Origin: an uncultured archaeon
Lineage (GTDB): Archaea; Aenigmatarchaeota; Aenigmatarchaeia; QMZP01; JAFGSV01
Reading direction: 5' to 3'
Assembly (NCBI GenBank): GCA_964559215.1
Contig: CAZLFZ010000003.1
Span: forward strand, 18,779 to 82,778
Length of the DNA stretch: 64,000 bases
A model generated the notes under the pieces. The model searched no databases. It saw nothing but the letters and a program-made list of their open reading frames with translations, and had not been told where the DNA came from. A program made the translations under genes and the position numbers. Every line of letters starts with the position of its first letter. Position 1 is the first letter of the stretch. Shown one piece after another: positions 13,737 through 57,295 of this stretch.

Positions 13737-14200
13737 TCACTTCACCAGTTAACCTATAGGTGGCATGCTACCGATTTATAATTGGAATAAATCAGTTAAC
13801 CTACACTATATTATTCGGGAAGGTTGCTTAATAATATAGCTTAAGAAAAAACCAGAAACATGACGAAATGTTCGGAAAAGATCTGATCAAAACGGAAATT
13901 TGTTTTACCCAGCAGGATGGTTCGAATGAAATTTAAGTTCGGAAAGCCTTATAGAATACTTGGCAGGGGAGTAGAAGTTATTTCGGGACAACGCACGTGA
14001 AAAGGCGGACAGTTAACTTTTTAAAGCTTTGCTTACATCCATATAGATTAGAACTGGAAAATACTGCTCCTTCTAGGCAGGTTAACCAGAGCATAAAGAA
14101 TATGCGAAAACAATAAGAACAATGAGAAAATAAAACATATTGAGAACAAGATTAAGATTAAATATAAAATCATGATTATCGATTAAGGAGATGATAAAGT

Positions 14201-16003
14201 ATGATAAATGCAAAGAAGATAGTCCCGGACACCAGCGTCCTAATTCCTGGGACAGTATCGGGACTCATAAAAGCTGGTAAAATCAAGCGCGCCAGGGTGA
14301 TAATACCAATGGCCGTTGTCGACGAACTGCAGGCGCAGGCCTCGAGGCACAGGGACATCGGCTTTTCCGGCCTTGCTGAGATAAAGAAAATCAGGGAAGT
14401 TGGAGAAAAGCAAGGCGTGCGTATAGAATTCGTGGGTGAGCGGCCCACCATGGAAGAGATACAGCTTGCCAAGAAGGGCAGGATAGACGCGCTAATCAGG
14501 GACGTCGCCAAGCACGAGCATGCGATGCTGCTAACGTCTGACTATGTGCAGGCATTGGTGGCCGAGGCAGAGAACATCGAGGTAAAGTACCTACCAAAGG
14601 AACCATTGAGAAGAATCAGACTCGAATCCTTTTTCACCCCGGACACACAATCGGTTCACCTGAAGGTCGGGGTTAATCCTATGGCCAAAAAAGGCAGGCC
14701 CGGCAACGTGAACCTCGTGAACATCCGGAACAAGAAATGCACAGAGGAGGAAATAAAGGGCATAATAAACCAGGTCATGTCCAAGGCCAGGACAGATCAG
14801 GAGTCATTCATAGAAATAAGCAAACAGGGAGCCTTGGTTGTGCAGCTCGGAGATTACCGAATAGCCATAACCAGGCCTCCGTTTTCGGATGCGCTCGAGT
14901 TGACAGCCGTCAGGCCTATTGCGAAAGTCCGGCTAGCCGACTACAAGATGCACAAGCAATTGGAAAAGGACATAGTCGAAAAGTCTAGCGGCGTGCTCAT
15001 AGCAGGCCCTCCCGGTTCAGGGAAGTCGACTTTTGCCGCGAGCCTGGCCGATTACCTTGTTTTCCACAACAAGATAGTCAAGACATTCGAGCAGCCCAGG
15101 GATTTGCAGGTAGGGCCAGAGGTGACGGAGTATGCTCCCCTGGAGGGAGACTGGGAGAAGACGGCAGAGCTGCTGCTGCTTGTCAGGCCCGACTATACGA
15201 TATTCGACGAGATCAGAAAAACAAAGGACTTCAGGGTTTTCGGGGACATGCGCCTTGCCGGCGTTGGCATGATAGGCGTGGTTCATTCCACCGGCCCTGT
15301 CTCGGCGATACAAAGATTCATAGGCAGGCTTGAGCTGGGCATAATACCCCATGTCATAGATACCGTCATCTACATAAAGGACGGGCATATAGAAGAGGTT
15401 TACGCCCTTTCGCTCACGGTTAAGATACCGACGGGCATGCAGGACGAGGACCTCACCAGGCCAGTTGTGGAGATCAGGGATTTCGAAACCAAGGAGCTCA
15501 AGTATGAGATATACACATACGGTGAGGAGAACGTAATAGTTCCTGTCCAGGCAGATGAAAAGGAATCGTCCCTCAAGAAACTCGCGAAGGAATCCATATA
15601 TTCCAAGCTCAGGCACTGGGACCCGGCCATGCAAGTAGAATTCCTGAGTGAAAACCGGATAGCTATAAGGGTAAGAAACGACGTTATAGCCAAACTGATA
15701 GGCAAAAAAGGCAAGAACATAGAGCAGATAGAGAAACAGCTGGGCGTGCGTATATCTGTGGAGCCCAAGCAGGCAACGCTGAAGGGTGAGATAGACTTCG
15801 ACTGGGAAGAGACGGGCGCCAATTTCTACCTGCTGGTGGACCCGAAACTCACGGGCAAGAACTTGGACATATACGACGGCGAAGACTTTCTATTCTCTGC
15901 GATAGCTGGCAGAAACGGCAGGATAAAAATCAGGAAAAGGACCGAGCTGGGAAGAAAGGCCCTGCAGGCGTATCTGAGCAAGAACCTGAGGGTACTAGTC
16001 TGA
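14201..16003 (+). CDS. PIN-domain / PhoH-PilT-like P-loop ATPase / KH-domain protein (COG1855-type)
   Basis: N-terminal PIN-like acidic residues (IVPDTSVLIPG.. AVVDELQ). Walker A GPPGSGKSTF. C-terminal KH motif IGKKGKNIEQIEKQLGV. GGAG upstream of the ATG. Confidence 0.88.
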   Translation: MINAKKIVPDTSVLIPGTVSGLIKAGKIKRARVIIPMAVVDELQAQASRHRDIGFSGLAEIKKIREVGEKQGVRIEFVGERPTMEEIQLAKKGRIDALIRDVAKHEHAMLLTSDYVQALVAEAENIEVKYLPKEPLRRIRLESFFTPDTQSVHLKVGVNPMAKKGRPGNVNLVNIRNKKCTEEEIKGIINQVMSKARTDQESFIEISKQGALVVQLGDYRIAITRPPFSDALELTAVRPIAKVRLADYKMHKQLEKDIVEKSSGVLIAGPPGSGKSTFAASLADYLVFHNKIVKTFEQPRDLQVGPEVTEYAPLEGDWEKTAELLLLVRPDYTIFDEIRKTKDFRVFGDMRLAGVGMIGVVHSTGPVSAIQRFIGRLELGIIPHVIDTVIYIKDGHIEEVYALSLTVKIPTGMQDEDLTRPVVEIRDFETKELKYEIYTYGEENVIVPVQADEKESSLKKLAKESIYSKLRHWDPAMQVEFLSENRIAIRVRNDVIAKLIGKKGKNIEQIEKQLGVRISVEPKQATLKGEIDFDWEETGANFYLLVDPKLTGKNLDIYDGEDFLFSAIAGRNGRIKIRKRTELGRKALQAYLSKNLRVLV

Positions 16004-16004
16004 T

Positions 16005-16268
16005 TCACCCCCTTTTTGAATAGTGATATTTCATCAAAATCAGCGTCACGTTTAGAACAACACCTACAATATTGGCCACCACGACGGCGAAGCTGCCTAT
16101 ACCAAGGCCATAGACGAGCCACATCAGCATGCCGAAACCCAACAATATGTTAAGCCAATATGACAGATCGTGAAGACTCTTCGTTTTGTATCCCCTTACG
16201 ATTTGGGGCAGGAAGCCCGATGTTGTTATGGCGGCAGCAAACAGACCGAACAGTTCCCAGTTAATCAT
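16005..16268 (-). CDS. SemiSWEET (PQ-loop/MtN3 half-transporter), 87 aa, 3 TM
   Basis: FLPQIVRGYKTKS PQ-loop motif; ..WLVYG.. and ANIVGVVLNVTLILMKY align closely with bacterial SemiSWEETs (e.g. FLPQVLRV..TK..D.S..W..YG..ANV..LYYKL). Confidence 0.8.
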   Translation of the reverse strand: MINWELFGLFAAAITTSGFLPQIVRGYKTKSLHDLSYWLNILLGFGMLMWLVYGLGIGSFAVVVANIVGVVLNVTLILMKYHYSKRG

Positions 16269-16382
16269 ATTAAAAATATGATTCGCACTTATATTATTTC
16301 ACCACAGTTTAACACGCATGTTGCCAATCGTTAACATCGATCGGATCTTAAGCTTAAAAAACCACCCAACAATAATAAAACC

Positions 16383-17282
16383 ATGAGAAAATCACCTAAG
16401 CTTGTTGCTTGGACATTGGCGATTTTTTTATTCTTCGTTCCCCTTTCCAGCGCTAGCTCATACACATTTTACTTGGAACCGACGGATGGGATGGTCGAGC
16501 TGGAAATAAGACAGCCGGGGGTTTCCCTGAAAAGGATGTATTTCAACATTCCAGGGCAGAACAAGAGATTCGTGGTGAGGGTTGACAGGATAGACGCCGA
16601 TGTAGACTGGGTTTACGATTATTTCATGATCTCCAGCACGGGTATGCAGGGCGAACCGGAGTCTGTTGCTTTTGACATCAGGGTGAACAAATCATGGGTC
16701 AGCGATAACAACATAGACCTGAAAACGATCGCCCTTGGCATCTACGACGAAGATTGGACCAGGCTGTCTGTTATACCGGTCTCGGAAGATGCCGATTTCT
16801 TGCACTACAGAGCGGATCCGCCAAAACTGGAGGGTTTGTTTGCCCTGTCGGGAGAGCCGGTGCTTGTAGACATACGAGTCACAAGCCCCTGCAACGAGAA
16901 CGATGTTTGCGAGCCGGAACGCGGGGAAGACAGGGAAAACTGCCCTGACTGCATCAGGATCGTCCCAGGCAGATGCGTCCCCTCGGAAAAATACTGCATT
17001 GATGACTACCTTTTCAGGTGCAGCGCCGACGGCTCGGAATACAGCCTCGAGAGGTGCGAATTTGGGTGCGCTGGCGATACGTGCCTGTTAGCGGCAGGCG
17101 GAACGTCGGCCGGTATGGCCATTGCGCTGAATCCTGTATTCGTTTCTGTGCTGGCTGTCTTGCTGACTGTTGTAATTTACCTGGCATTGCTGGTAAAAAG
17201 GATGAGGAATGAATTGCTGAACGTAGAGGAAGTAAAAATCTCGCACGAAGACGTCAAGAAAATCGTAAAAAGAAAAGCGTGA
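16383..17282 (+). CDS. secreted Cys-rich protein with N-terminal signal peptide and C-terminal TM anchor plus basic tail
   Basis: Signal peptide MRKSPKLVAWTLAIFLFFVPLSSASS; Cys-rich block CNENDVCEPERGEDRENCPDCIRIVPGRCVPSEKYCIDDYLFRCSADGSEYSLERCEFGCAGDTC; C-terminal hydrophobic helix followed by KRMRNE. Confidence 0.6.
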   Translation: MRKSPKLVAWTLAIFLFFVPLSSASSYTFYLEPTDGMVELEIRQPGVSLKRMYFNIPGQNKRFVVRVDRIDADVDWVYDYFMISSTGMQGEPESVAFDIRVNKSWVSDNNIDLKTIALGIYDEDWTRLSVIPVSEDADFLHYRADPPKLEGLFALSGEPVLVDIRVTSPCNENDVCEPERGEDRENCPDCIRIVPGRCVPSEKYCIDDYLFRCSADGSEYSLERCEFGCAGDTCLLAAGGTSAGMAIALNPVFVSVLAVLLTVVIYLALLVKRMRNELLNVEEVKISHEDVKKIVKRKA

Positions 17283-17312
17283 ATCCCTTTTTGGCAGAAA
17301 ACAAAGCCAAGT

Positions 17313-18317
17313 TCAGATAATTTCCCTTCTTTTCTCGATGTCCGCACTGTAATCTGCCAACATGTTAAGGTTCTTCATCAGAGAAGTTTTCATATCTTCC
17401 TTTGTGCAAAAGAAAATGCCCTTGACATCGCTTTTTCTCAGCTTGTTGATAAGCGAGTGGGCAAATCTTATTACCATCTCCTCGTCCTGATACGCCAGCA
17501 AAGTTGAAATCGAATCGAAGATCAACCCGTCAAACCTTTTGCTTTGCAGGCATTTTTCTACCGACAGCAAAATTTCGGTCATGTCAGATGGACCCGTGAG
17601 TTTTTCATAGTTTTTGCCCTTGGAAACGGTTTCACCCTCAGAAGAAGCATCTATGAAATAGAAACAGTCGGTCTTTATCCCGTTGTTTTTCAGGATTTCT
17701 ATTATCGAAAAATACGGCTTGTTAACCGTAACGAATATGATTCTTGGAATGGCCTTGGTGACAGCCTTTATTATCGACAGGGAATCCACCGGATATAGCG
17801 CGTTTGATATCAAGAAAGTCAGTACCTGGTTTTTTTCGGTTTCCCTTTTAAGGTCTATCGAGTGCCTTCTGACCAAGACCTTGAGATCCCTGTAGGAGCT
17901 TAAACTAACACTCTCTTCTTTGAATTCCTCGTCCATGGCAGTGATGATGTCGGTGGTGGTTATTATGCCAGACAGTTTCCCCTTCTTCATCACAGGCAGT
18001 TTTTTTATGTCATTCGCTTTCATCAGCTTTACGGCCTCTTGCAAGGTCCTGCCTTCGTCAATGGTTATGACGTTTTTAGACATAACCTCCCTTATTTTTA
18101 TATTGTCCGGATTTTTTGCAGACATCACTACCTTGCTGAGTATGTCTCTTTCAGTGATGATGCCAACGACATCAACCCCCTCGACTATCACTATCGAGCC
18201 CATCCAGTATTTGGACATCTTCTCTGCGGCCCGCTTTATCGTATCATCAGGGCCCAGGGTCCTTACATTCTTGTTCATTTCCTGCTTTACAAGGGCAACC
18301 ATAACAAATAATATCAA
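17313..18317 (-). CDS. CBS-pair fused to Walker-less KaiC/RecA-fold (MEDS-like) domain protein
   Basis: Two CBS motifs (..GIITERDIL.., ..GIITTTDII..). The C-terminal 180 aa are paralogous to the small proteins at 26862-27410, 27541-28089 and 34872-35444 (FIDA/FIDC ... (I/L)FDSIS(T/A)LL ...). The probable true start is an internal Met (MNKNVRTLGPDD, about 18278). Confidence 0.75.
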   Translation of the reverse strand: MILFVMVALVKQEMNKNVRTLGPDDTIKRAAEKMSKYWMGSIVIVEGVDVVGIITERDILSKVVMSAKNPDNIKIREVMSKNVITIDEGRTLQEAVKLMKANDIKKLPVMKKGKLSGIITTTDIITAMDEEFKEESVSLSSYRDLKVLVRRHSIDLKRETEKNQVLTFLISNALYPVDSLSIIKAVTKAIPRIIFVTVNKPYFSIIEILKNNGIKTDCFYFIDASSEGETVSKGKNYEKLTGPSDMTEILLSVEKCLQSKRFDGLIFDSISTLLAYQDEEMVIRFAHSLINKLRKSDVKGIFFCTKEDMKTSLMKNLNMLADYSADIEKRREII

Positions 18318-18527
18318 TTCCTTCTTAAAAAGCTGACTATTTCAACTTCAAAATTTGTAGAATTCCCGAAAATTTCAAATCATAAAAATTTGTCAAAGAA
18401 CTATTTTAATAGATGGCGGATTTCTCATGATACTTTATATCAAGGTATCAAGGTTTCGGATAGGAAAACAAAATAAATCTTCTGTCACTAGCGAAAATTC
18501 GACGGAAACACAGCTTTTCAGAACAAG

Positions 18528-19028
18528 CTACTGTCGAATTTTGTACAATTTTCTTTGACACTTCAGTTCTGATACCAAAACCCCCCTTAGTTCTATCTCA
18601 CGCAGATATTCGCTGCACCCAGTCCTCGATAATTTCAGCAATTCGCTCAGTTGGGGGGCACCCAAGCTTCCATGCTGCTGAATTAACATGATTATCATTT
18701 CTTTTACCCTCATTTTTCTGACGCTCGGGCTGGTTTTCCCTTGACTGTTCGACTGGTACAAAAACATCAATTCGTCCATTTTCTCGGCAACTTCCTCGAG
18801 TCTGGTGTTCATCTCGTTAGTTCTGTCTTCAAGGCCGTGCTCCCTCACGTTGCCACTCCTGATGTTGTAGAGAACAATGACACCATCAGCCAGGAACTCC
18901 TCCACTCCTGTTGGACTGTATATCTTCGGGTCCTGGTTGGTCTCTGATATGAGGAACGTGTTGACATTCATCTCCTCGAAGAATCTGAAAAGCCGGTTTA
19001 TGTACAGCCTGTAGGTCTCGCCCTTCAT
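18528..19028 (-). CDS. chimeric ORF: C-terminal about 65 aa of a KaiC-like ATPase fused to the wHTH C-terminal domain of the 55679-56140 family (probable recombination remnant)
   Basis: Residues 1-66 (ETYRLYINRLFRFFEEMNVNTFLISETNQDPKIYSPTGVEEFLADGVIVLYNIRSGNVREHGLE) match the C-terminal third of the KaiC at 41728-42585. Residues 67-166 are about 88% identical to the C-terminal 100 aa of 55679-56140. The ATGA overlap with the KaiC stop at 19025-19028 indicates translational coupling. Confidence 0.6.
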   Translation of the reverse strand: MKGETYRLYINRLFRFFEEMNVNTFLISETNQDPKIYSPTGVEEFLADGVIVLYNIRSGNVREHGLEDRTNEMNTRLEEVAEKMDELMFLYQSNSQGKTSPSVRKMRVKEMIIMLIQQHGSLGAPQLSELLKLSRTGCSEYLREIELRGVLVSELKCQRKLYKIRQ

Positions 19029-19780
19029 GTCTTACGCATCGTTGCTATAGTCGGCGTCTTTATCTTAAGCAACTCCAGTCCCTTTTTGGTTATGGCAAAG
19101 GGGTGGATAAATGTTGAATGATCTGTTCTTCTCATCTTACTGATTAGCATAGTTCTGTTGTAGCGCTCTGCAACAGGAACGAACTCGAGGCCGATGACAG
19201 CATCCACAACGAATTCGGTCAATGCCTCCTCACCAAGAATTACCCCTTGTTCTGCTATCCCTTCTGTGAACATGGTCGTTACTCCAAGTTTCTTTAACAA
19301 TTTAGTAAGACTCATCAACGTAACTCTTGACGTGTATCGGTTCTGTATAAACATTTGCAGAATCGACACAGAATCGATAACCACCCGCTGCGCTTTCATC
19401 GATTTAACATCTTCAGCTATTTTATTGGTGAATTCAGATATGTACGCTTTTATGAGGCGGTCAGTCTTTTCCTCTTTGCCAGCAGCTAGGGGCATTACTG
19501 ATACGAACTTCAACAGCCCCTTTTTCTCCAAGGATTTCAGGTCCCAGCCAAACATCTTTTTAATATCCATCCGAATGTCATCCTCTTCTTGCTCGGTGGT
19601 GACATACAATCCCGGTTCTTTATTCAAAGCACCAGCATACAAGAAGGAAGAGCAGAAAGCGGTCTTCCCCGTCCCTGCTTTGCCCCTAATCAAAACAACA
19701 CTGTTATTTACAAATCCGCCTTCTATCTTTTCGTCGAAACCGATTACCCCGCTCTTCAGTCTTTCCTCACCCTCAGCCAT
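19025..19780 (-). CDS. single-domain KaiC-like RecA-superfamily ATPase
   Basis: Walker A GKAGTGKTAF, Walker B-like VVIDSVS, and an overall KaiC/RadA (COG0467) pattern; 251 aa. Confidence 0.9.
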   Translation of the reverse strand: MAEGEERLKSGVIGFDEKIEGGFVNNSVVLIRGKAGTGKTAFCSSFLYAGALNKEPGLYVTTEQEEDDIRMDIKKMFGWDLKSLEKKGLLKFVSVMPLAAGKEEKTDRLIKAYISEFTNKIAEDVKSMKAQRVVIDSVSILQMFIQNRYTSRVTLMSLTKLLKKLGVTTMFTEGIAEQGVILGEEALTEFVVDAVIGLEFVPVAERYNRTMLISKMRRTDHSTFIHPFAITKKGLELLKIKTPTIATMRKT

Positions 19781-19812
19781 AATATTTTTTACTCTAGATG
19801 ATTAAAATAGTT

Positions 19813-20540
19813 TTATTTCTTACCCTTGTTTTTCCCCACATCTTTCGCTTTTTTCTTTTTCTCTTTCCGCTGCTTGCCATAGTCCTTTTGCACGCGCTTT
19901 GTGTCCTCAGCGGTTTCCAGCAGTTTAGCCATACTCTTTTCTGCCTGTTCTTCTTTCTCAGCTTCTTCCTTGATGTGTTTCTCAATCGCCCTTACATCCT
20001 CCAGCTCCTCGAGCAATTCCAATCCCTTTTTTTGTTCTTCAGCATCTTTTTTGGTAAGCTTTGGGAGCTTTTTCAACTCCCCCTTTTTCTTCTCGTAGTC
20101 CTTTTGCACGCGTTTTATGTCCTCTAACTTTTCCATTAGTTCGTTTTCCCTCTTCCATATTTTTTCCTGCTTCTCGGCCTTCTGTTCGGACTCTTTTTCC
20201 AGGGCCTTGGTATTCTCCAGCTCCTCGAGCAGCTTCAGCTCTTTGTCCCTCTTCTCGATTTCTGATTTCTTCAGTTTCTTTACCTTTATCCTTGTTCCGG
20301 TCTTTTTCAACCATTTATCGTATTGTTTCTGTACCCCCTTCATATCCTCAGCTTTTTCGAGCACAGCAAACCATCTTTTCTCTTTCCTTCTCTTAACTTT
20401 CCTGTCAGTTTCTTTCTGAACGGCTTTTACATCTTCAAGCTCTTCAAGCATCTGCTCTGTTGCTATTTGCTTTGCCTTCTCCTTCTTTCTCGGCTCCCTT
20501 GTTTTTTTCGGCAAGCCGGAGGGGAGTCTCGCCCCTGACA
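19813..20540. repeat. tandem coding repeats of about 215-220 bp (6 copies of the LEELEDxKxVQKDY motif) in the cytoplasmic tail
   Basis: Recurring DNA strings ctccagctcctcgagca (about 19995, 20215), gtccttttgcacgcg (about 19883, 20098) and tcttcaagctcttcaagca (about 20437). These generate the low-complexity artefact ORFs seen on the plus strand. Confidence 0.6.
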
Positions 20541-23500
20541 GTTTCCAGGCCCACAATATCCAGAAAATGAATGCAAGTGCTATGAGTATGAACTGCCACA
20601 GTTCGTCAGGGATGTGTGTCACTATTTCCCATGTGTAGGTTTTCTCGATCCAGACGATACCGGCGATCATTGCCAGATTGCTGAGATGCATGAGCGGCAG
20701 GCCAATGACCAATCCCAGCGCCCTCTTTCTGCCCGTGACACCCACCGTAGCTAATACAAGCGCTGCGTAGATGAGTAGGGACTCCAATCCCGTCACCTGC
20801 ACAGCTCTGGTGACGGCATCAGCAAGTGGGATGAAACCCAGCACATTCGTGATGAAAAGTACTTCTTCCCTGACGACTGCCTGCACAATGCTCATGTCGG
20901 GACGCAGCCAGCGTATAAGATACACCGGGATGCAGAACACGAGAAGCCGGAGCGCAAAGTACAAGAGGTATACCCCCTTCCGCTGCATCGCACTCGATTT
21001 CGTTGAGGCGATGGCCCACCTGAGCGAACGTAAAATCAGTACGGGGAACTTAAAGAGCTGCGAAAGAATGTACCGGGGCCGCACGATTTCGTGTAGCTTC
21101 TTTCCATTTTCCTCTATTAGACTGCTTATCTCAAGCAGCCTGTCATGCTCTTTGGTGATTATCTTCAGGTACGTGGCTTTATCGATTTGCCTGGTGAAAT
21201 ACTGAGCCTCTGTTGATTCTTCTGTTTTGGCAGTTATTTTTGCCTCTTCTCCCAACTTCCTGGTCTCTTTTTTCAGCCTGTAGAGGGGGATGAAGAGCTG
21301 GGTTGTAAAGAAGCTTGCGAAGAAGATGGCAAGTGCTATTCCTGTGATGTACCATTTGTTCTCAAACAGGAACTTTTGAATCCCCACCCTGGCTAATCCA
21401 AGTCCAATTTCATTAATCCCCATTTCTATCCTGGAAATTGAAATCCTTAATTCTTCCAGATCGTCCATTTTTATAGCATCCATTGACTCCGAAATCGTTT
21501 TTTCGATGTTCTTTACCTTTCCATGCAAGGCGCCAACATCAACGCCTGCCTTGGCATACTCATTGACCCTTAAAACCAAGTCTGGTACCTGTTTTTCCAG
21601 CCCATTTAAAGAAGTAATCAAGGGGTTTTCAAGCACAACGATATTTACACTTTTACTTTTCTCCAAATCAGCAGTGCCTATTCTAACAGTTAGCAAATAC
21701 TCTCTCAACTCTGTGTTAAGGGGCACGTGGATAATTACCGAAAAATCTATTTCGCCCTTAACGGGCAAATAAAATTCTTTGTCTATGAAGACAGCACAAC
21801 ACTCCTTTGTTATGTTAGAGCTCAGGTTGAGATCAAGGTTTCCCATGTTAGCAATGGAGCCGATAACCGTCCCGTTCTCACCCCCAACTATTTCAATAAC
21901 CCTGGTGTCAACTGTCACGTTAAAATTCTCAGTCCAAATTATGCATGCCGGGTCTCTGGCACAGTCTGTGTCACCGCAATCCACAAATCCGTCACAATCG
22001 TTGTCAAGCCCATCAGAGCAATTCTTTGGAGTTGGGACACATGTAACATTGCTTATGTTGCCGACAATGCTGGGTCCTCTTCCCCTACTTGGCGGGGGCT
22101 CTGCGGCTTCCTCGGCTTTCGTTTTAAGTGATAAAGAGCCAGGTCCTGTGTTGTTATACTCGTCTGTTGCATTAGCCGTCAAGTAAAATTCGATTCCTGG
22201 TGTTGAGGATGACCTGCAGTCAGCGGAAATGTTGTAATACAAATCACCGGTTCTTTCCAGTGAAAAATTGCCGTTGGGGCAAAACAGGGCCACGTTCACG
22301 GTGTAACCCAATAGTTCATTTCTTGAGTTATACACCTCTATCTGGGGTATGGGGGATATCCCGGAATTGGCAGAATACTCGGTCCCGGCAGGGGGCTGGG
22401 TGAATACGGGAAGCAGGCTGGAGCTTACGTTGAAATACCATGTACCGTTTCCCCTATTCTCCTGTTTTGACACATTTGCAAACATGGTGCAGTTTCCAGC
22501 TGGGTCGCTTTCATTTATCTGATAAGTATAGGTTGTGTTGGTTTCGTTGAATATCATTGCTTCGCTCTGGTTATATCTCGTCAGATTAACGGTCCAATTA
22601 ACCGAACTTACCAAATTGTCATTAACATCATAAACCTTGAGTGTCAGGGTTTCCCCTCTGCTATAAACAGATTCGTTCGTGGTCAGATTTAACGTGTACG
22701 AATCACTGACGTAGAAGGTGAGATTTTCCGGACAGCCCACATCCTCCCCGCTCTTTTTTTCATTATTGCCAATATCTACCGCTGTTATTCTTATCGTACA
22801 ATTCCCTGTTCGGTTTAATTCAAGGTTTTCTACATTATTTCCAGCACCGAATTTAAATTGCCAGATATCACTCGAAATCTTTTCCAAAGTCCCATTAACG
22901 CTGATGTTATCAGGATAGGTGATGTTGGCTCTTACAGATACGAGACTCACGTCATCTGTGGCATTCACAAAAATTGAAAGGGAAGTGAAAAGATTTGTTT
23001 TGTTCACCCCTATCCCACTGTAGTTGAACCAGAAATCGGTCACATTTGGTGGTATGGGGTCTTCCAGTATAACATCTATTGACAGTGAAGAATAGTTAAA
23101 CCCTCCCTCTCTGGTGCTGGAATTCACATAAGTCGTTGTGTTTGTCACGCCAACAGCACTTGCGTTTATGCTCCAATTAACAGAAGAAGAGGAGCCACTC
23201 GGGATAAAAGATATGTTTTTCGTCCAATTTTCACCAGCGCTTATGTTCAAGATAGTCTGATTCTCGATACTAAGGTTTATGGTTAAATTCCTGAGATCGC
23301 CATTGTCCGCGGAAACCAGGGTTTTGTACGTCTTTGTTTCGCCCTTAATTATGACTTCCGGCGCATCTATCGACACCAGGGACTCTCCAAAATTGACCAC
23401 AAAGCTTGCATTATTCCTGACAGAACTATCCTGGGTGTAAACGGTGGCGTTAACGATGTGAGCACCGGACAGTGTTATGTTCGTGTAATTAAACTCATAG

Positions 23501-25857
23501 ACATAGCACATGGAAACTCTTTCCTCTGCTGTAAATAATCTGAACTCATAGATTATCAGGACAGCTGACGAGGAGTGATTTACCCTTATTTGGTTTGTTC
23601 TGAAGGGCGAGAATCCGGAAAATTCAGTCAAATTCTTGTCGTCGGGCGGGTTCACATCGGTGAAAAGAGGCATCCATGCACCGCTTTTTTTGTATAAAAT
23701 AGAAACATTTGCCTGACCGGCGCCATCCTCCCATAAGGCCTCGATTCTATCAAAGGTATAGCTGTCATTCAGCGTTATCTCAAGCCATGATGGGGTTTCA
23801 TCGCCAATCCAGGCAGTGTCAGTATTGTTGTCTATAGACAAGTTGCAGGACCCGACGTTGCAATTACCGCTTGTCCCTAAGTCAAGTAGCGCAACATTTT
23901 GACCTGTTCCTGTCCCAGCTTCTACACATTCGCTTTCATTTAGAATAGCAACCAATGCAGAGCTTGTGAAATCAACCCCAGCTAAATAGGGCTTTTCTAT
24001 GCTGAAGTTCAGCATATTTATGGGTGTCACATTTCCCACCACCTCTGTCCTTAGGGTTGTGTCGCCTGTGATGTTTATTGTGCTTGGAAATACAGTAATG
24101 TCTGGTAAAATAACTTCGTGTGAAATAGAATCCTCAGCACCAGTGCCATTGGCAGGGGTTGCATGCAAAGAGACACGTGTAAATCCTTCCTGTTTTGACT
24201 CTGCTTCCCATTTCACCGTTATTGTTGTCCCGTTTGTAATATTATACAGCTCCGGTTTGGACCACGTTCCCCCGGGGGTGAGGTTCAGAACACTTCGGTC
24301 CGTGATATTTAAAGTCAAATTCACCTGCATCAAATCCCCGTTTATAGCGGTAACGTTTACAGTGATGTTGCACGTTTGATTAGCAAGAATTCTGAAATTT
24401 GGAAAGATGAACTGGAGCTCAGTTGAGCCAAAACCCACCTCAAAGGAAAGATTGGTATAATCTTCAAAGTTTATATTCCCCAGGGTATCGTTTGCCCAGA
24501 CTTGCATTACATTATATGTTCCTAGCTGAGAAGTATCGTTCCACTCATAGATCCAGAAATCAGTGCCACTAGAATTAGAAAGAGTTACATTAACCTCTGT
24601 CCCATTTGGATACATAAAAGTCGCATTAACCGCGCTAACACCACTCGTGTCGTTTACTGTTACATTGAACAACACTCCATGACCAGGCTGGATTTTCGTC
24701 TCGTTCAACTGCGGGTTTGAAATTGTTGGACCTGTTGTATCATAGCTTAGTGTCTTCCATGCAGTACAATTATAGGTACCAGAGCAGTAGAATTCCATCT
24801 TTACTGGTATACCACCAACCCATTCAAGACACTCCCATTGTTGACAGACCTTCTTTGTTTCATCCCAAAAACTACAGTTCCATCTGTCACAGTAGTAGTC
24901 TGTTTCTGAGAATGCTCCATCGATTGAGCCTAAACACTCCCATTGATCGCAATAATTTCCATTCCAAGCAGAGCAATTCCATCCATTTGAACAATACCTG
25001 TCATACTCCTCTGAACTTTCAGCCCATGCTGTGCAGTTCCAAGCCTCGCAAACATCTCCATTCCAAACTATACAATCCCATACACCAGAACAATAAGAGT
25101 CTGCCTTTTGAGTTGATCCCTGAGCCCATTCGGTGCAATTCCAAATGTCACAATTAGTTCCGTTCCAGTTTGTACAGTTCCAGATGCCAGTAGAATAGTA
25201 ATCAGAGTCGTCATTTTCACTAAGAGACCAAGCTGTACAGTTCCAGTATCCACAATACCCCCCATTCCACTCTAGGCAATCCCAGTCACCAGAACAATAC
25301 ATAAGTCGTCTATCTTTTCCGCTGTTTGTCCACCCCTCGCACTTGTATTCTGCACAAGTAACCCCATTCCAACGTGTGCAGTTCCAGTTGCCTATACAGT
25401 ATTTTGACTGCTTGTCATCATCATATGTCCATGCCGTGCAGTTCCATAATTCACACTTCTCTGTAGTCTGTCCATAATCATTTAACTGGATTGGGGATTC
25501 ATCAAAATTATTGCCATCTGCCGGTCCCTTATCACTTACCCAAAAACCTTCAGACGACATAAAGAATGCGAGTGTCGCTTTTGGAGTAGCTGATACTAAA
25601 GGAATAAAGAAAAAAATGGTAAATAAAGAAATTAAGAAAACACCGAAAAACATACCTCCTTTTTTTCTACGCAGGATGTTTCTAAAAGGTCTCCGCCTGG
25701 GCTTGTGTTTCTTTCTAATTTCTTTCAACTTTTTTGTTGCCCCAGAGAAATCCTGACCAAGATAAACGTTGATGACCCGGCCATCCTTGTCCCTGAAGCT
25801 TTCATAATAATAAGGCCCGTGAATTTTTTTGCCTCTTTTTATATACTTCTTGTACAC
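19813..25857 (-). CDS. giant cell-surface glycoprotein (2014 aa): cytoplasmic N-terminal motif, signal-anchor, Cys/Trp repeat array, sequon-rich Ig/CARDB-like region, multi-TM segment and Lys/Glu-rich cytoplasmic repeat tail
   Basis: Complete ORF in the track. N-terminus MYKKYIKRGKKIHGPYYYESFRDKDG followed by TM FFGVFLISLFTIFFFIPLV. About 7 copies of WNCTAW..YCSG.W(N/D)C..WNG..C. More than 100 NxS/T sequons. About 7 predicted TM helices near the C-terminus, then LEELEDVKAVQK(D/E)Y repeats. Confidence 0.85.
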   Translation of the reverse strand: MYKKYIKRGKKIHGPYYYESFRDKDGRVINVYLGQDFSGATKKLKEIRKKHKPRRRPFRNILRRKKGGMFFGVFLISLFTIFFFIPLVSATPKATLAFFMSSEGFWVSDKGPADGNNFDESPIQLNDYGQTTEKCELWNCTAWTYDDDKQSKYCIGNWNCTRWNGVTCAEYKCEGWTNSGKDRRLMYCSGDWDCLEWNGGYCGYWNCTAWSLSENDDSDYYSTGIWNCTNWNGTNCDIWNCTEWAQGSTQKADSYCSGVWDCIVWNGDVCEAWNCTAWAESSEEYDRYCSNGWNCSAWNGNYCDQWECLGSIDGAFSETDYYCDRWNCSFWDETKKVCQQWECLEWVGGIPVKMEFYCSGTYNCTAWKTLSYDTTGPTISNPQLNETKIQPGHGVLFNVTVNDTSGVSAVNATFMYPNGTEVNVTLSNSSGTDFWIYEWNDTSQLGTYNVMQVWANDTLGNINFEDYTNLSFEVGFGSTELQFIFPNFRILANQTCNITVNVTAINGDLMQVNLTLNITDRSVLNLTPGGTWSKPELYNITNGTTITVKWEAESKQEGFTRVSLHATPANGTGAEDSISHEVILPDITVFPSTINITGDTTLRTEVVGNVTPINMLNFSIEKPYLAGVDFTSSALVAILNESECVEAGTGTGQNVALLDLGTSGNCNVGSCNLSIDNNTDTAWIGDETPSWLEITLNDSYTFDRIEALWEDGAGQANVSILYKKSGAWMPLFTDVNPPDDKNLTEFSGFSPFRTNQIRVNHSSSAVLIIYEFRLFTAEERVSMCYVYEFNYTNITLSGAHIVNATVYTQDSSVRNNASFVVNFGESLVSIDAPEVIIKGETKTYKTLVSADNGDLRNLTINLSIENQTILNISAGENWTKNISFIPSGSSSSVNWSINASAVGVTNTTTYVNSSTREGGFNYSSLSIDVILEDPIPPNVTDFWFNYSGIGVNKTNLFTSLSIFVNATDDVSLVSVRANITYPDNISVNGTLEKISSDIWQFKFGAGNNVENLELNRTGNCTIRITAVDIGNNEKKSGEDVGCPENLTFYVSDSYTLNLTTNESVYSRGETLTLKVYDVNDNLVSSVNWTVNLTRYNQSEAMIFNETNTTYTYQINESDPAGNCTMFANVSKQENRGNGTWYFNVSSSLLPVFTQPPAGTEYSANSGISPIPQIEVYNSRNELLGYTVNVALFCPNGNFSLERTGDLYYNISADCRSSSTPGIEFYLTANATDEYNNTGPGSLSLKTKAEEAAEPPPSRGRGPSIVGNISNVTCVPTPKNCSDGLDNDCDGFVDCGDTDCARDPACIIWTENFNVTVDTRVIEIVGGENGTVIGSIANMGNLDLNLSSNITKECCAVFIDKEFYLPVKGEIDFSVIIHVPLNTELREYLLTVRIGTADLEKSKSVNIVVLENPLITSLNGLEKQVPDLVLRVNEYAKAGVDVGALHGKVKNIEKTISESMDAIKMDDLEELRISISRIEMGINEIGLGLARVGIQKFLFENKWYITGIALAIFFASFFTTQLFIPLYRLKKETRKLGEEAKITAKTEESTEAQYFTRQIDKATYLKIITKEHDRLLEISSLIEENGKKLHEIVRPRYILSQLFKFPVLILRSLRWAIASTKSSAMQRKGVYLLYFALRLLVFCIPVYLIRWLRPDMSIVQAVVREEVLFITNVLGFIPLADAVTRAVQVTGLESLLIYAALVLATVGVTGRKRALGLVIGLPLMHLSNLAMIAGIVWIEKTYTWEIVTHIPDELWQFILIALAFIFWILWAWKLSGARLPSGLPKKTREPRKKEKAKQIATEQMLEELEDVKAVQKETDRKVKRRKEKRWFAVLEKAEDMKGVQKQYDKWLKKTGTRIKVKKLKKSEIEKRDKELKLLEELENTKALEKESEQKAEKQEKIWKRENELMEKLEDIKRVQKDYEKKKGELKKLPKLTKKDAEEQKKGLELLEELEDVRAIEKHIKEEAEKEEQAEKSMAKLLETAEDTKRVQKDYGKQRKEKKKKAKDVGKNKGKK
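24750..25440. repeat. array of about 34-residue Cys/Trp-rich repeats (WNCTAW..(x11)..YCSGxW(N/D)CxxWNGxxC) within the giant protein
   Basis: Visible in the translation: WNCTAWTYDDD.., WNCTRWNGVTC, WDCLEWNGGYCGYWNCTAWSL.., WNCTNWNGTNCDIWNCTEWAQ.., WDCIVWNGDVCEAWNCTAWAE.., WNCSAWNGNYCDQWECLG.., WNCSFWDE... Each unit carries an N-C-T sequon. Confidence 0.65.
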
Positions 25858-26083
25858 CAGCTCACCAACTACTTGCCTTATTTTCGCATCCAGGAATAGC
25901 TAATTGATAGCTAATTATTACTAATTATTATATTGTAAGTAACCTTTAATAAAGAGCTGGTTAAACCCACATGTTTGGTGAGCTTTCATTACCTCATAAT
26001 CGGGCGCATTCACCTGTTACTTACATTAATGGAATGGGTAAGAAACTGAAATGTTCGACGACTGAAACGTTATCAATTGGATG

Positions 26084-26854: not shown

Positions 26855-26861
26855 TTTCCCT

Positions 26862-41727: not shown

Positions 41728-42585
41728 ATGCTAAAAACAATAAAGGGGGGGGAGGTGCAGGAATTAAAACCCGAAAACGAAAGGGCGCCAGCACAGAAAA
41801 AAAGGACCGCTAATAAAAAAAAGGTACCAGAAGCGAAACTTCAGCAAAAAACAGATCAGCACGAGTTCATAAAAACAGGCATACCGGGCCTCGACGCCCT
41901 CTTTGAACACGGGATACCAAAAAAATCTAGCGTGCTTATTGCTGGCGGTGCCGGTTCCGGCAAGACCCTGCTCTGCTTGCAGATTATGGTCAATGCTGCC
42001 AAGGCCGGCAAGAAATGCATGTACATGTCCTTTGAGGAGTCCGCCGCCAGGCTGAAAAACCACATGGAAGAATTTGGCTGGATTTTAGGGAAATATGAAA
42101 AGAACGTTGTTATAGAGAGGTTCAACCTGTTCGACATTACCAGAGTCATAGATGCGCTGCTTGCGAAGCAATCAGGGGATTTGCTTATAGATGTTAAGCC
42201 TGTCCTATTCCCGGAAAATTTCAAGCCGGATATTATAGTTATTGATTCTCTGACAGCCATAGCTTCCGCTTTTAGCAAAAGAGAAGAAACCTACCGGATA
42301 TATATAGAACAGCTTTTCAATTATTTCGAAGAGTTGGGGGTTAGTACATTCCTTATATCAGAGACTGAGCAGGAGCCTAGAATATTCAGTCCAACGGGGG
42401 TAGAAGAGTTCCTCGCTGATGGGGTCATTATTCTTTACAGCATAAGAAAAGCAAATGTCAGGGAAAATGGACTTGAAGTACTCAAGATGCGGGGCGCGAA
42501 GCACAAGAAAAAAATCGTGGCCATGCAGATACTTGATAAGATAGGCATAGAGGTTTATCCGGAGCAGGAAGTTTTCGGCGTGTGA
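41728..42585 (+). CDS. single-domain KaiC-like ATPase with Lys-rich N-terminal extension
   Basis: GIPGLDALFEHGIP, Walker A GGAGSGKTLL, ..IVIDSLTA.., C-terminal ..LEVLKMRGAKHKK. Confidence 0.9.
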   Translation: MLKTIKGGEVQELKPENERAPAQKKRTANKKKVPEAKLQQKTDQHEFIKTGIPGLDALFEHGIPKKSSVLIAGGAGSGKTLLCLQIMVNAAKAGKKCMYMSFEESAARLKNHMEEFGWILGKYEKNVVIERFNLFDITRVIDALLAKQSGDLLIDVKPVLFPENFKPDIIVIDSLTAIASAFSKREETYRIYIEQLFNYFEELGVSTFLISETEQEPRIFSPTGVEEFLADGVIILYSIRKANVRENGLEVLKMRGAKHKKKIVAMQILDKIGIEVYPEQEVFGV

Positions 42586-55678: not shown

Positions 55679-56131
55679 CTACTGTCGAATTTTGTACAAT
55701 TTTCTTCGACACTTAAGTTCGGACTCTAAAACACCCTTCAATCCCATCTCCTTCAAATATTCGCTACACCTAGTCCTTGATAAATTCAGCAATTCGCTCA
55801 GTTGGGGGGCACTCAAGCTTCCATGCTGCTGAATTAACATGGTTATCATTTCTTTTACCCTCATTTTTCTGATGCTCGGGCTGGTTTTTCCTCGACTGTT
55901 AGATTGATATAAAAACATCAATTCATCCATTTTTTCTGCAACTTCCTCGAGTCTGGTGTTCATCTTGTTGATCCTGTCTTCAAGGCCTATCTCCTTGAAC
56001 TTTTTGAAAATTATGCTTTCTAGCCTCTGGTTTACGGATTTTTGCTTTTCCAGCTCCCGGATTTTTTCCAGCTCCGAAACAGAATCGAGCTTTTCCTTGT
56101 CCATTTTACGCAACTTAAGAAACTTCATCAT
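55679..56131 (-). CDS. coiled-coil plus winged-HTH putative transcriptional regulator
   Basis: C-terminal ..MITMLIQQHGSLSAPQLSELLNLSRTRCSEYLKEMGLKGVLESE..KLYKI (wHTH). Its C-terminal 100 aa are duplicated in 18528-19028. ATG at 56131 (the track ORF starts at a TTG at 56140). Confidence 0.75.
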   Translation of the reverse strand: MMKFLKLRKMDKEKLDSVSELEKIRELEKQKSVNQRLESIIFKKFKEIGLEDRINKMNTRLEEVAEKMDELMFLYQSNSRGKTSPSIRKMRVKEMITMLIQQHGSLSAPQLSELLNLSRTRCSEYLKEMGLKGVLESELKCRRKLYKIRQ

Positions 56132-56140
56132 ACTATCCAA

Positions 56141-56154
56141 TTGTCGGTCGACAA
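56141..56154. promoter_or_regulatory. palindrome TTGTCG-GT-CGACAA at the start of the wHTH gene in a divergent promoter region; a related palindrome TGTCG-AC-CGACA lies at about 51522-51533
   Basis: Perfect 6-bp arms; lies between the divergently transcribed regulators (55679-56131 - and 56213-57295 +); TATA-like aatataaaa at about 56178. Confidence 0.3.
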
Positions 56155-56212
56155 TTTAAACTTTTCCCTGTTAACAGAATATAAAAGGTTCGACAGTTAT
56201 TGACATTAATAG

Positions 56213-57295
56213 TTGTGTACATTAATGTATAAACTGTCAGACAGGTGCGCGCGTTTGACGAACAATCCAAATTCTACAGACCTCAGGAAGGCTATAATAG
56301 ATGCATTGCGCCAGCATCCCGAGGGCCTGACACTCAGGGACATAGCAGAAATCGTGGGCAGGCACAGGCACACGATAACGAAATACGTGTACGAGTTGAT
56401 TGGGGCGCGGGTTATCTACCAGAGGGACGTTGGTGCCGCCAAGCTATGCTACCTGAAGGAGAATTACAACGGCCCAGAGAAAGGGAAGGGCGTGAAAATT
56501 TTTAGCAACATGTCTAAGGGACAGGTCCAGCTGATGGCGCTTTTCATGCTGCTTTTGCTGGTGCCTGCAACGGTTATCGTTGCCCAAAATGTGACAAATT
56601 CTTCAAGTGGCCTTGAAGGGATGGCAACGGCTATGGACATAGAACTTAATGAAACGCTCGATGACGTTTTGAATGAGACGATCCTGGATGAAAATGTATC
56701 AGGGGATATACCTGAAGGGGAAGCCAATCACCAAGTCCCGGGCAACACGACCGAAGAAGAAACATCCGAAGAGGAAACAGCCCCCCAAGAGCCCGATAAC
56801 GTGACCGAAGAAAATATAACAGAACCAGGACTCAACATCACACAGCCTTCCGTCAATGTCACAATCAATGTCACAATAAACGAAACCCAAGAAAACGCAA
56901 CCACGAATATCACACAGCCCGAGGAAAACGTAACGATGCCGGAAGAAAACGTTACCATAGTCAATGAAACCAACGTAACCTACCCTGAAGAAAACATAAC
57001 AATACCCGGGCCACTCGAACCGGAACTCTTTGTGAACATCACATCGCCGGATAATATCACAAGAGGGGAATCGGCAAGGCTTGAGGCGGTCATTGAAAAC
57101 ACAGGCGGCGAAGCCGAGGATGTAATCCTAGAATGGATACTGCCCGATTTCTTCGTTGTTGTCGCCGGGTCTGAGCGTGAAGAAGTAGGGACTTTGGCTG
57201 CAAATTCGTCTTTTGCATCTGAAATAACGGTTTCCAGCACGATCAATGTGAGTTTGGGCATAAACGAAATCAAGGTGAGGGTGAGCTATGAATAA
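56213..57295 (+). CDS. membrane-tethered winged-HTH protein: cytoplasmic wHTH - single TM - sequon-dense acidic stalk - C-terminal CARDB/Ig-like ectodomain
   Basis: N-terminal ..AIIDALRQHPEGLTLRDIAEIVGRHRHTITKYVYELIGARVIYQR..; TM LMALFMLLLLVPATVIVA; about 30 NxS/T in 150 aa; ..ITRGESARLEAVIENTGGEAEDVILEWILPDFF... A likely start is an internal Met (about 56227). Confidence 0.7.
   Translation: MCTLMYKLSDRCARLTNNPNSTDLRKAIIDALRQHPEGLTLRDIAEIVGRHRHTITKYVYELIGARVIYQRDVGAAKLCYLKENYNGPEKGKGVKIFSNMSKGQVQLMALFMLLLLVPATVIVAQNVTNSSSGLEGMATAMDIELNETLDDVLNETILDENVSGDIPEGEANHQVPGNTTEEETSEEETAPQEPDNVTEENITEPGLNITQPSVNVTINVTINETQENATTNITQPEENVTMPEENVTIVNETNVTYPEENITIPGPLEPELFVNITSPDNITRGESARLEAVIENTGGEAEDVILEWILPDFFVVVAGSEREEVGTLAANSSFASEITVSSTINVSLGINEIKVRVSYE

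Follow-up and report, generated by a model that had tools for sequence, protein, structure and literature searches.

Whether a gene in which part of a KaiC-like ATPase is joined to a DNA-binding domain represents a newly invented signalling protein or the debris of a genome rearrangement is the question raised by a 166-codon ORF of an uncultured archaeon of the Aenigmatarchaeota. The ORF lies in the window, by which the whole 64,000-nucleotide stretch of DNA analysed here is meant, directly behind the KaiC-like ATPase gene KaiC1 (Table 1). The ORF is genuine, but as a scar of rearrangement it is nothing unusual: the rear two-thirds of a winged helix–turn–helix (wHTH) regulator gene have been joined to an ATPase-dead scrap of KaiC. 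The fusion at this rearrangement breakpoint is probably a decaying gene remnant backed up by an intact paralogue, and not a new signalling protein.

Table 1. Features of the chimeric ORF, its neighbours and its relatives in the window
Feature	Position	Strand	Description
CBS-iKaiC, CBS-pair + inactivated KaiC-like (DUF7504) gene	17313..18317	(-)	Pfam; conserved downstream partner of wHTH in relatives
Lineage-specific spacer, ~185 bp	18344..18527	(-)	Chimera stop to conserved CBS-iKaiC upstream region; 60-97 bp in relatives
Chimeric ORF	18528..19028	(-)	166 codons + stop (ORF list, translation)
wHTH-derived segment, codons 65-166	18528..18836	(-)	Equals codons 52-153 of the 55679-56140 ORF, ~49-150 of the 150-aa family
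3' joint	18827..18836	(-)	GGCCTTGAAG (Gly-Leu-Glu) common to wHTH gene and, over 7-8 nt, KaiC2-family genes; in frame
KaiC2-family-derived segment, codons 2-67	18828..19025	(-)	Internal piece, after Walker B, before VLKMRG; without ATPase motifs
5' joint	19023..19028	(-)	ATGA start/stop overlap with KaiC1; KaiC2-family homology begins at GAAGGGCGAG
KaiC1	19025..19780	(-)	Complete 251-aa KaiC-like ATPase gene; Pfam PF06745 positions 2-229/231
Colinearity break of all nine related metagenome contigs with window	19149..19150	.	
Resident KaiC2-family gene	41728..42585	(+)	Related to the fragment, not its donor; orthologue of P0020, L025, L026 by synteny
Intact wHTH paralogue	55679..56131	(-)	150 aa from MMKF start; ancestral upstream neighbours and control region kept
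wHTH control region	56141..56260	.	Divergent, highly conserved; TTTAAAT box ~25 nt before ATG, TTGTCG-N2-CGACAA, palindrome CTGTTAACAG

The dual origin of the ORF is evident from BLASTP, in which residues 4–67 match residues 187–250 of the KaiC protein encoded at 41728–42585 (47/64 identical, 73 %, E=2e-33) and residues 62–166 match residues 49–153 of the wHTH protein encoded at 55679–56140 (89/105 identical, 85 %, E=5e-64). Judged from these alignments, both similarities are far above chance. The initial annotation, which described a chimera of a KaiC fragment and a wHTH domain, is borne out in this respect, as is the KaiC origin of the N-terminal part, whose failure it had named as a refutation. 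The 88 % identity that it gave for the regulator part holds at the nucleotide level, although not for amino acids, and the KaiC part is not, as stated there, the last about 65 residues of the protein but an internal piece, since the final 35 residues of KaiC (VLKMRG...EVFGV) are missing.

The same 166-codon fusion occurs, in the same reading frame at the joint, on nine contigs assembled independently from as many JGI metagenomes; downstream of 19149, all of them run colinear with the window at 95–99 % nucleotide identity. Three alleles are known in total (92–99 % amino acid identity), all of them intact, with no frameshift or premature stop. Misassembly of the contig near 18830, the other refutation named by the initial annotation, has a negligible probability and is ruled out by these nine contigs crossing the joint; moreover, KaiC1 of the window is unbroken across 19149 and colinear with its orthologue in the relative L012. 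Among 1.84 billion protein-cluster representatives scanned exhaustively with HMMER, and among 5.8 billion clusters, the chimera's own cluster (P0001/P0002) is the sole one to cross the junction, and the KaiC–HTH architecture does not recur in other lineages there. Within these databases, the fusion is unique to its source population.

At the 3' joint, the chimera and the wHTH gene both read GGCCTTGAAGACAG, while the resident KaiC2 gene reads GGACTTGAAGTACT; in a further comparison the L025 KaiC gene reads GAGCACGGCCTTGAGG and the resident KaiC2 GGACTTGAAG, against the same wHTH sequence. The stretch common to both parents, which the initial annotation had correctly placed at the switch, amounts to 7–10 nt, depending on the KaiC relative compared, and the peptide across it is ...NVREHGLEDRTNEMN... 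At the 5' joint, the start ATG overlaps the TGA of KaiC1 (acATGAagg), and this ATG was created by the joint itself, because the KaiC2-family homology begins only at GAAGGGCGAG. The KaiC1 orthologue of L012 ends in ...CCGTGAAGTC and the P0020 gene contains ...GGGAAGGGCGAGACC, so that a GAAG microhomology of about 4 nt is possible at this site on sequence grounds. Neither joint disrupts the frame, and a start codon is present.

The KaiC-derived segment corresponds to residues about 184–250 of the 285 residues of KaiC2 and, in chimera residues 4–62, to positions 138–196 of the 231 positions of the Pfam KaiC model (PF06745). A KaiC-like ATPase comprises a complete RecA-like domain of ~230 residues, of which the chimera contains ~60 of 231 positions. 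Both Walker A (GGAGSGKT, KaiC2 residues ~73–80) and Walker B (IIVIDS, ~167–173) fall outside the retained piece, and the joint lies immediately N-terminal to the VLKMRG segment, which is missing together with the last strands. The piece should be unable to bind or hydrolyse ATP. Chimera residues 26–68 are modelled by AlphaFold2 with pLDDT below 50, and the KaiC piece is predicted to be disordered and probably does not fold. NCBIfam KaiC models score the chimera at 16–25 bits, against cut-offs of 249–546. Pfam by itself would name the chimera 'KaiC'.

The regulator-derived segment lacks the N-terminal 48–51 residues of its family but keeps the long helix and the winged helix, with helices at residues 101–119, 124–131 and 135–147 predicted at pLDDT 70–80 by AlphaFold2. 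These retained elements are plausibly enough for dimerisation and DNA binding. In the intact wHTH protein, helices 2–30, 33–48 and 50–80 precede a winged helix predicted at pLDDT above 90; the N-terminal helical region (residues 1–48), which contains 13 invariant columns among 15 members of the family, has been replaced in the chimera by KaiC-derived sequence. The Pfam HTH_24 match of the chimera is below its cut-off (19.0 versus 21.9 bits). The winged helix of the family yields generic ArsR/MarR matches in Foldseek, and a profile search against PDB sequences gave only marginal MarR/Lrp matches.

The position of the regulator half becomes clear from four related lineages (L015–L017, L018 and L106/L107), in which the intact 150-aa wHTH gene adjoins CBS-iKaiC, p300 and PIN/KH on their upstream side; L018, which is the complete 742-kb genome CP070804.1, has one more gene, of 364 aa, between wHTH and CBS-iKaiC. 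The chimera occupies this same position upstream of CBS-iKaiC, p300(-) and PIN/KH(-), and these neighbours are orthologous to those of the relatives (66–72 %, 39–67 % and 74–86 % amino acid identity, respectively), with CBS-iKaiC being 72 %, 66 % and 71 % identical to the gene downstream of the intact wHTH in L015, L018 and L106. The ancestral order was thus giant protein, p360-like HTH/surface protein (<-), 150-aa wHTH (->), CBS-iKaiC (->), p300 (<-) and PIN/KH (<-). The window aligns to L015 in two pieces (L015 4032–5013 to window 56676–55679, and L015 4704–5013 to window 18837–18528), with 310 bp of L015 covered by both; accordingly, the terminal ~310 bp of the wHTH gene occur twice in the window, on the same strand and 36.8 kb apart. 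The left half of the split locus, with the full-length wHTH gene and its conserved promoter/operator, is located at 55679–58217, and its homology with L015 stops at the wHTH stop codon; the right half is located at 14017–18837. The spacer behind the chimera was considered as a repeat or MITE, and no second copy of it was found in the window. Since an intact wHTH gene adjoins the same genes in four relatives, the wHTH part of the chimera stands in the ancestral position of the regulator and was not pasted from the 55679 copy.

On its other side, the chimera abuts KaiC1, the last gene of a block consisting of a DUF7504 gene, a KaiC gene, a gene for a 2014-aa giant protein and KaiC1. L012 has the same block with an 84 %-identical KaiC1 orthologue; next to the latter comes a convergent response regulator, and neither a wHTH gene nor a chimera is present there. 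In all nine metagenome contigs, an IS1595-family element or its end lies 121 bp upstream of the chimera, and KaiC1 is cut to its last 41 codons. The element is complete (977 bp) in L002–L005 and L009, where it stands in place of window positions 19150–27199, while L001 carries a 151-bp end of it; the window itself contains no copy. An IS-mediated 8-kb deletion polymorphism thus adjoins the chimera. Of the translational coupling with KaiC1 proposed in the initial annotation, the ATGA overlap is observed, but the coupling is a supposition, and in the strains of the nine contigs it is impossible because KaiC1 has been truncated by the IS element. The neighbourhood of the chimera is full of KaiC and iKaiC genes, the latter name, for inactivated KaiC-like (DUF7504) domains, being that used in PMC5847659, which cites Makarova et al. 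2017.

The substitutions in the chimera suggest relaxed constraint, as far as such small counts in aligned sequences allow. In the KaiC part, the alleles differ by 0 synonymous and 4 nonsynonymous changes, which is improbable at the family omega of ~0.08 (P=0.003) and compatible with neutrality (P=0.39). In the wHTH part, polarised changes number 6 synonymous and 8 nonsynonymous in the chimera versus 7 and 2 in the intact copy, a difference that is not significant (Fisher p=0.2); with 6 of the 14 changes being synonymous, nonsynonymous ones are nevertheless rarer than expected under pure neutrality (P=0.04). The branch omega of about 0.2–0.3, which is based on small counts and confounded by mosaic, gene-conversion-like tracts, fits either some remaining function or a recent fusion preceded by a long functional past, and because of these tracts dN/dS was dropped as a clean test of function. 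All chimera alleles carry R137G, a non-conservative change in the LSRTRCSEYL motif at a residue that is invariant in 15 full-length homologues. Further family-invariant residues are altered, likewise non-conservatively, by R96Q and R158Q in the window and L009 alleles and by Q118L in the L001–L008 allele. The C-terminal 102 positions hold 38 family-invariant residues, which the chimera does not fully match, while the close intact paralogue shows 0 deviations. An intact ORF in three alleles has a chance of roughly one in three, given only 28 substitutions. As in a pseudogene, the chimera is truncated relative to both parental families and has lost its own promoter.

How the chimera arose may be explained in several ways. 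In the model derived from the initial annotation, recent microhomology recombination among resident paralogues placed copies of the tail of the KaiC gene at 41728–42585 and of the last 100 codons of the regulator gene (55679–56140) behind KaiC1. Both genes are indeed present in the window, each is similar to one half of the ORF, and a short common sequence marks the joint, but this origin is very improbable. The wHTH half lies in its ancestral place beside conserved downstream genes, and it keeps ancestral residues (SPSV, LKLS and VLVSE) that are altered in the 55679 copy. The KaiC half is only 72 % identical in nucleotides to the resident KaiC2 gene (dS about 2.0), compared to 82–83 % (dS about 0.9–1.1) to KaiC2-family genes of other species (P0020, P0019 and L025); at the amino acid level it reaches 88 % to P0020 residues 168–233 (tblastn) and up to 89 % within the KaiC2 family. 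The resident gene is ruled out as donor by this divergence. The two halves also differ unequally from their supposed donors (dS 0.46 versus 2.0), and what stands of the proposal is a genome rearrangement, though not a recent exchange between residents. In a metagenome scan, neither a near-identical donor nor further alleles were detected, nothing having emerged beyond the chimera contigs already described and KaiC genes of at most 86 % amino acid identity, and reciprocal products (the wHTH N-terminal part or KaiC N- or C-terminal pieces) were not found in the window. An alternative in which a segment of ~36.8 kb already carrying the KaiC/wHTH joint was inserted by a single, Campbell-type crossover in the wHTH gene would account for the direct wHTH 3' repeats (~310 bp) that flank the 36.8 kb at the very point of interruption of the ancestral locus, for the end of left-hand homology at the wHTH stop codon and for the lack of a resident donor of the KaiC piece. 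This homology-guided insertion is nonetheless unlikely, since the DNA between the repeats has genes for ordinary chromosomal functions and shows, in part, synteny with chromosomal blocks found in L012, L025 and L026, and since the repeats are 12 % diverged without a clean crossover pattern. No integrase or transposase was detected by Pfam in the 20 previously unscanned ORFs between the repeats, and there is no tRNA-type integration site, because Rfam and tRNA scans of the window returned no matches. The arrangement resembles attL/attR-type displaced partial copies in that intact and truncated 3' parts form direct repeats around a block interrupting a conserved locus; unlike such duplications, the repeats are diverged and enclose housekeeping-type genes, with no integrase or mobile-element genes.

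The question of function concerns the present state of the gene. A rewired regulator that binds DNA through its wHTH part and is expressed with the giant-protein/KaiC1 operon via the ATGA overlap, its KaiC N-terminus being tolerated or mildly useful, is conceivable but doubtful. Such a role would agree with the ORF being intact in three alleles, the in-frame joint with a start codon overlapping the KaiC1 stop, an omega of the wHTH part below neutrality, the predicted winged helix and the retained downstream partner CBS-iKaiC. However, R137G falls in an otherwise invariant recognition-helix motif and is accompanied by allele-specific R-to-Q or Q-to-L changes at invariant sites, the KaiC part has accumulated only nonsynonymous changes, the conserved promoter/operator is gone, KaiC1 is truncated in the nine metagenome contigs, an intact paralogue is present and the low omega is explicable by conversion tracts from functional homologues. 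A bolder variant regards the fusion as a young selected gene, in which the KaiC segment, a helix and two core strands normally packed inside the RecA fold, would dock onto, or complement the strands of, one of the many KaiC or iKaiC proteins encoded nearby, tethering wHTH output to a KaiC-like hub with expression stoichiometrically coupled to KaiC1 via the ATGA overlap. This would mean that KaiC-to-transcription wiring had been caught being invented in DPANN archaea, but we attach very little probability to it.

The preferred reading is a gene remnant in early decay at a rearrangement breakpoint. The right-hand wHTH copy lost its promoter and first ~51 codons and was joined in frame, within the Gly-Leu-Glu sequence GGCCTTGAAG, to a 66-codon KaiC2-family remnant, which in turn abuts the KaiC1 stop codon, and from that joint the ATG arises. 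As to the order and mechanism of the steps, we infer that the most economical path would begin with a duplication of the wHTH gene, continue with an insertion or rearrangement between the copies, and end with two short-homology deletions or illegitimate joins. Of a KaiC2-family paralogue, now lost, these joins would have left no more than a 195-bp piece, and the loss of this source would explain why no close KaiC donor exists. If made at all, after read-through from the KaiC1 operon and re-initiation, the product would be a wHTH protein with a replaced N-terminus and, given the intact paralogue, would presumably be redundant. By itself, one more rearrangement fusion ORF carries little weight, and annotators should call it a probable remnant, not 'KaiC'. 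Of modest value is the well-documented view that it gives of a small DPANN genome in flux, in which a conserved regulator locus has been split, one copy remaining intact with its highly conserved control region and the other being joined to what is left of a lost KaiC paralogue, with an IS-mediated deletion polymorphism alongside.

The chimera resembles prokaryotic gene remnants formed by short-homology joins, in which unrelated coding fragments are united at a few common bases (here 7–10 nt at the 3' and ~4 nt at the 5' joint), the N-terminus has gone together with the promoter while an intact paralogue exists elsewhere, and IS activity and strain-level structural polymorphism are found nearby. 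Unlike an obvious pseudogene, it keeps its frame and start codon in an intact ORF, with no disabling mutation yet. With archaeal KaiC-like ATPases and iKaiC proteins the chimera shares KaiC2-family homology and, with the latter, the lack of a working ATPase site, but iKaiC domains keep the whole fold, while the KaiC piece of the chimera is not predicted to fold.

The 150-aa wHTH family of Aenigmatarchaeota (HTH_24-type, with an ArsR/SmtB/MarR-like fold by Foldseek) shares with the chimera its genomic position, its downstream neighbours and the C-terminal 102 residues (67–85 % identical); the chimera differs in lacking the N-terminal ~48 residues, which form two helices, and the promoter/operator, and in R137G and the other changes at invariant sites. 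The ~120-bp promoter/operator region upstream of the intact gene is conserved across five lineages (the window copy and four others), and TTGTCG-N2-CGACAA within it is an inverted repeat. This region is missing 5' of the chimera, where KaiC1 coding sequence is found instead. Elsewhere in the window, including the surroundings of the chimera and CBS-iKaiC, matches to the operator motif are no more frequent than chance, and the sole exact copy is at 56141–56154. The comparison brings to light a conserved wHTH -> CBS-iKaiC module with a probable autoregulatory operator.

The 166-aa ORF overlaps, with its ATG, the TGA of the gene KaiC1 and had been described in the initial annotation as a KaiC fragment joined to a wHTH domain. 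This is borne out on both sides, since residues 4–67 match residues 187–250 of the resident KaiC2 (73 % aa identity, E=2e-33) and residues 62–166 match residues 49–153 of the intact wHTH paralogue (E=5e-64); the 88 % identity reported for the latter half holds for nucleotides, the amino acid value being 85 %. The short shared sequence proposed at the joint is also real, as the switch falls inside a Gly-Leu-Glu common to both parents, where the chimera and the wHTH gene read GGCCTTGAAGACAG and KaiC2 reads GGACTTGAAGTACT. The KaiC piece, however, is not C-terminal as claimed but internal (Pfam positions 138–196/231, the last 35 residues being absent), with Walker A, Walker B and VLKMRG all outside it. 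Chimera residues 26–68 are predicted by AlphaFold2 to be unstructured (pLDDT below 50).

Features of the window and their positions
Feature	Position	Strand	Remarks
PIN/KH gene	14201-16003
300-aa gene	16383-17282
CBS-iKaiC gene	17313-18317
Spacer	18344-18527		AT-rich
Chimeric ORF	18528..19028	-	166 aa
wHTH 3′ copies	18528-18837; 55679-55988	-
KaiC1	19025..19780	-	complete KaiC-like gene, 251 aa; Pfam KaiC positions 2-229/231
KaiC2	41728-42585	+	resident KaiC gene
Intact wHTH gene	55679-56140	-
Control region	56141-56260		divergent, ~120 bp
Match to L015 2879-5013	58217-55679		giant-protein start, divergent p360 gene, intergenic region, whole wHTH gene
Match to L015 4704-9071	18837-14017
Response regulator	34364-34732
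Giant proteins	19813-25857; 42999-47267; ~57855 to window end	-; -; +	rich in N-glycosylation sequons
KaiC paralogues near giant proteins	19025; 26084; 40623; 41728
DUF7504 genes near giant proteins	17313; 26862; 27541; 34872

Assembly error, named initially as a possible refutation, fails because the fusion is carried by nine contigs, each from a different JGI metagenome. From 19149 downstream, all nine follow the window colinearly (95–99 % nt identity), and they encode the only two full-length matches among 5.8 billion protein clusters (P0001, 99 %; P0002, 92 %), all other cluster matches covering one half only. When 1.84 billion cluster representatives were scanned exhaustively with HMMER, no junction-spanning cluster other than the chimera's own emerged. 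The fusion ORF is real, population-specific and sited at a rearrangement breakpoint. By the source names of its homologues and of locus L012, the organism belongs to the Aenigmatarchaeota (DPANN).

Judged from gene order, the regulator's ancestral position is that of the chimera's wHTH half, and the 55679 copy retains the ancestral upstream side. In related loci (L015–L017, L018 and L106/L107), an intact 150-aa wHTH gene is directly followed by a CBS-iKaiC gene (CBS pair plus inactivated KaiC-like domain), a 300-aa opposite-strand gene and a 600-aa PIN/KH gene, with one extra 364-aa gene between wHTH and CBS-iKaiC in L018 (complete genome CP070804.1); these three genes are orthologous to the chimera's downstream neighbours. 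L015 aligns to the window in two pieces overlapping by 310 bp. The overlap corresponds to the wHTH gene's 3′ part, of which the window thus has two copies. The two copies are 88 % identical in nucleotides and 36.8 kb apart, the intervening DNA interrupting a locus that is contiguous in four related lineages. The earlier idea of a pasted-in copy is contradicted, as the wHTH half already occupies the ancestral position.

Candidate paths to the two 3′ copies are tandem duplication plus insertion and a homology-guided insertion by which the 36.8 kb may have entered. This DNA encodes two-component systems, solute-binding proteins, HMGL-like, UbiA, aminotransferase, glycosyltransferases, sulfatase, PAPS reductase, TauE and phosphodiesterase, together with KaiC modules. 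Mobile-element integration is unsupported, because no integrase or transposase was found between the copies, nor any tRNA or Rfam match. A population-specific spacer of ~185 bp (60–97 bp in relatives) separates the chimera's stop codon from the conserved region upstream of CBS-iKaiC. The window holds no second copy of this spacer, and its TATA-like strings might provide an independent CBS-iKaiC promoter.

The best relatives of the KaiC fragment are KaiC2-family genes of other species (P0019/P0020, 88–89 % aa, 83 % nt; L025, 86 % aa, 82 % nt), which are orthologous to KaiC2 by synteny: a divergent AbrB-like gene is common to them, and L025 and L026 have KaiC3 in common with the window as well. 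Neither donor proposed initially holds: KaiC2 shows just 72 % nt identity to the fragment (dS ~2.0, vs 0.9–1.1 for the other species' genes), and the wHTH half sits at the regulator's ancestral position. No closer donor was found in the metagenome collection and no reciprocal pieces of the joint within the window. Compared with the P0019, P0020 and L025 homologues, the fragment has a dN of ~0.06–0.07 at a dS of ~1, indicating that it belonged to a constrained KaiC until recently. It is most simply read as what was left when a KaiC2-family paralogue was destroyed at this site.

Since KaiC2-family homology starts at GAAGGGCGAG, the fusion ATG was made by the joint, which lies between ...ACA and TGAAGGGC. 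In L012 (Aenigmatarchaeota SCS4bin.16), the KaiC1 orthologue (84 % aa) is the last gene of the same DUF7504, KaiC, giant protein and KaiC1 block, and the next gene is a convergent response regulator. The window orthologue of this regulator lies elsewhere, so synteny breaks exactly at the KaiC1 3′ end. Relative to this regulator gene, the block at window 19046–27410 is inverted or relocated compared with L012 (56–9127), making the KaiC1 3′ end the breakpoint of a second, independent rearrangement.

At this locus the ancestral wHTH regulator has lost both promoter and N-terminus, and short shared sequences now connect it to a non-functional KaiC2-family remnant that abuts KaiC1. We consider it fairly probable that the chimera is a gene remnant in early decay, redundant given the intact paralogue; the main alternative, that it still works as a regulator and has come to be expressed from the KaiC1 operon, appears rather unlikely. 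Upstream of the intact wHTH gene, the control region hardly varies across five lineages (window, L015 4430–4550, L106, L103 and L018), even though their coding dS is 0.8 or saturated. A TTTAAAT box lies ~25 nt ahead of the ATG, which suggests a leaderless transcript; the region further holds the inverted repeat TTGTCG-N2-CGACAA as well as the palindrome CTGTTAACAG, and the chimera has none of these three elements. A second TATA-like box is directed towards p360. The region probably serves as an autoregulatory operator or as shared control DNA.

Between the window and L001–L008 alleles, the KaiC part shows 0 synonymous and 4 nonsynonymous differences, a pattern with P=0.003 at the KaiC family's omega of ~0.08 and P=0.39 under neutrality. 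The 13 synonymous and 11 nonsynonymous differences in the wHTH part lie in conversion-like tracts, so dN/dS there is no clean test of function. This part (18528–18830 vs L001 10193–10501) is ~8 % diverged, compared with ~1.5 % in the flanks, and its differences form runs, including four consecutive third-position changes, that match the intact paralogue alternately, a mosaic that resembles those typically left by gene conversion or by recombination between wHTH homologues. When three outgroups are used to polarise the changes, the chimera branch has 6 synonymous and 8 nonsynonymous ones and the intact copy 7 and 2; the two do not differ significantly (Fisher p=0.2), and the chimera branch has fewer nonsynonymous changes than predicted under neutrality (P=0.04). 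Non-conservative changes affect residues that do not vary among 15 full-length homologues. All chimera alleles have R137G, within LSRTRCSEYL; the window allele also has R96Q and R158Q, and the other allele Q118L.

In all nine metagenome contigs, colinearity stops at 19149, 121 bp upstream of the chimera ATG. Five of them (L002–L005 and L009) carry at this site a complete 977-bp IS1595-family element with terminal repeats CGCTCTTCT, the copies being 99.9–100 % identical. Window homology returns beyond it at 27200; the element thus replaces 19150–27199 (8 kb), comprising most of KaiC1, the 2014-aa giant protein, a second KaiC and part of a DUF7504 gene. In L001 just the final 151 bp of the element are present, next to a different upstream flank, and L006–L008 end too near the site to show upstream sequence. 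The window contains no copy, and KaiC1 is unbroken across 19149 there and in L012, which identifies the window as the pre-IS state.

Three giant, sequon-rich proteins, probably surface proteins, are encoded in the window, each adjoining KaiC or inactivated KaiC genes. The same pairing occurs in L010 and L012, suggesting that a KaiC-like/surface-protein module recurs in this lineage.
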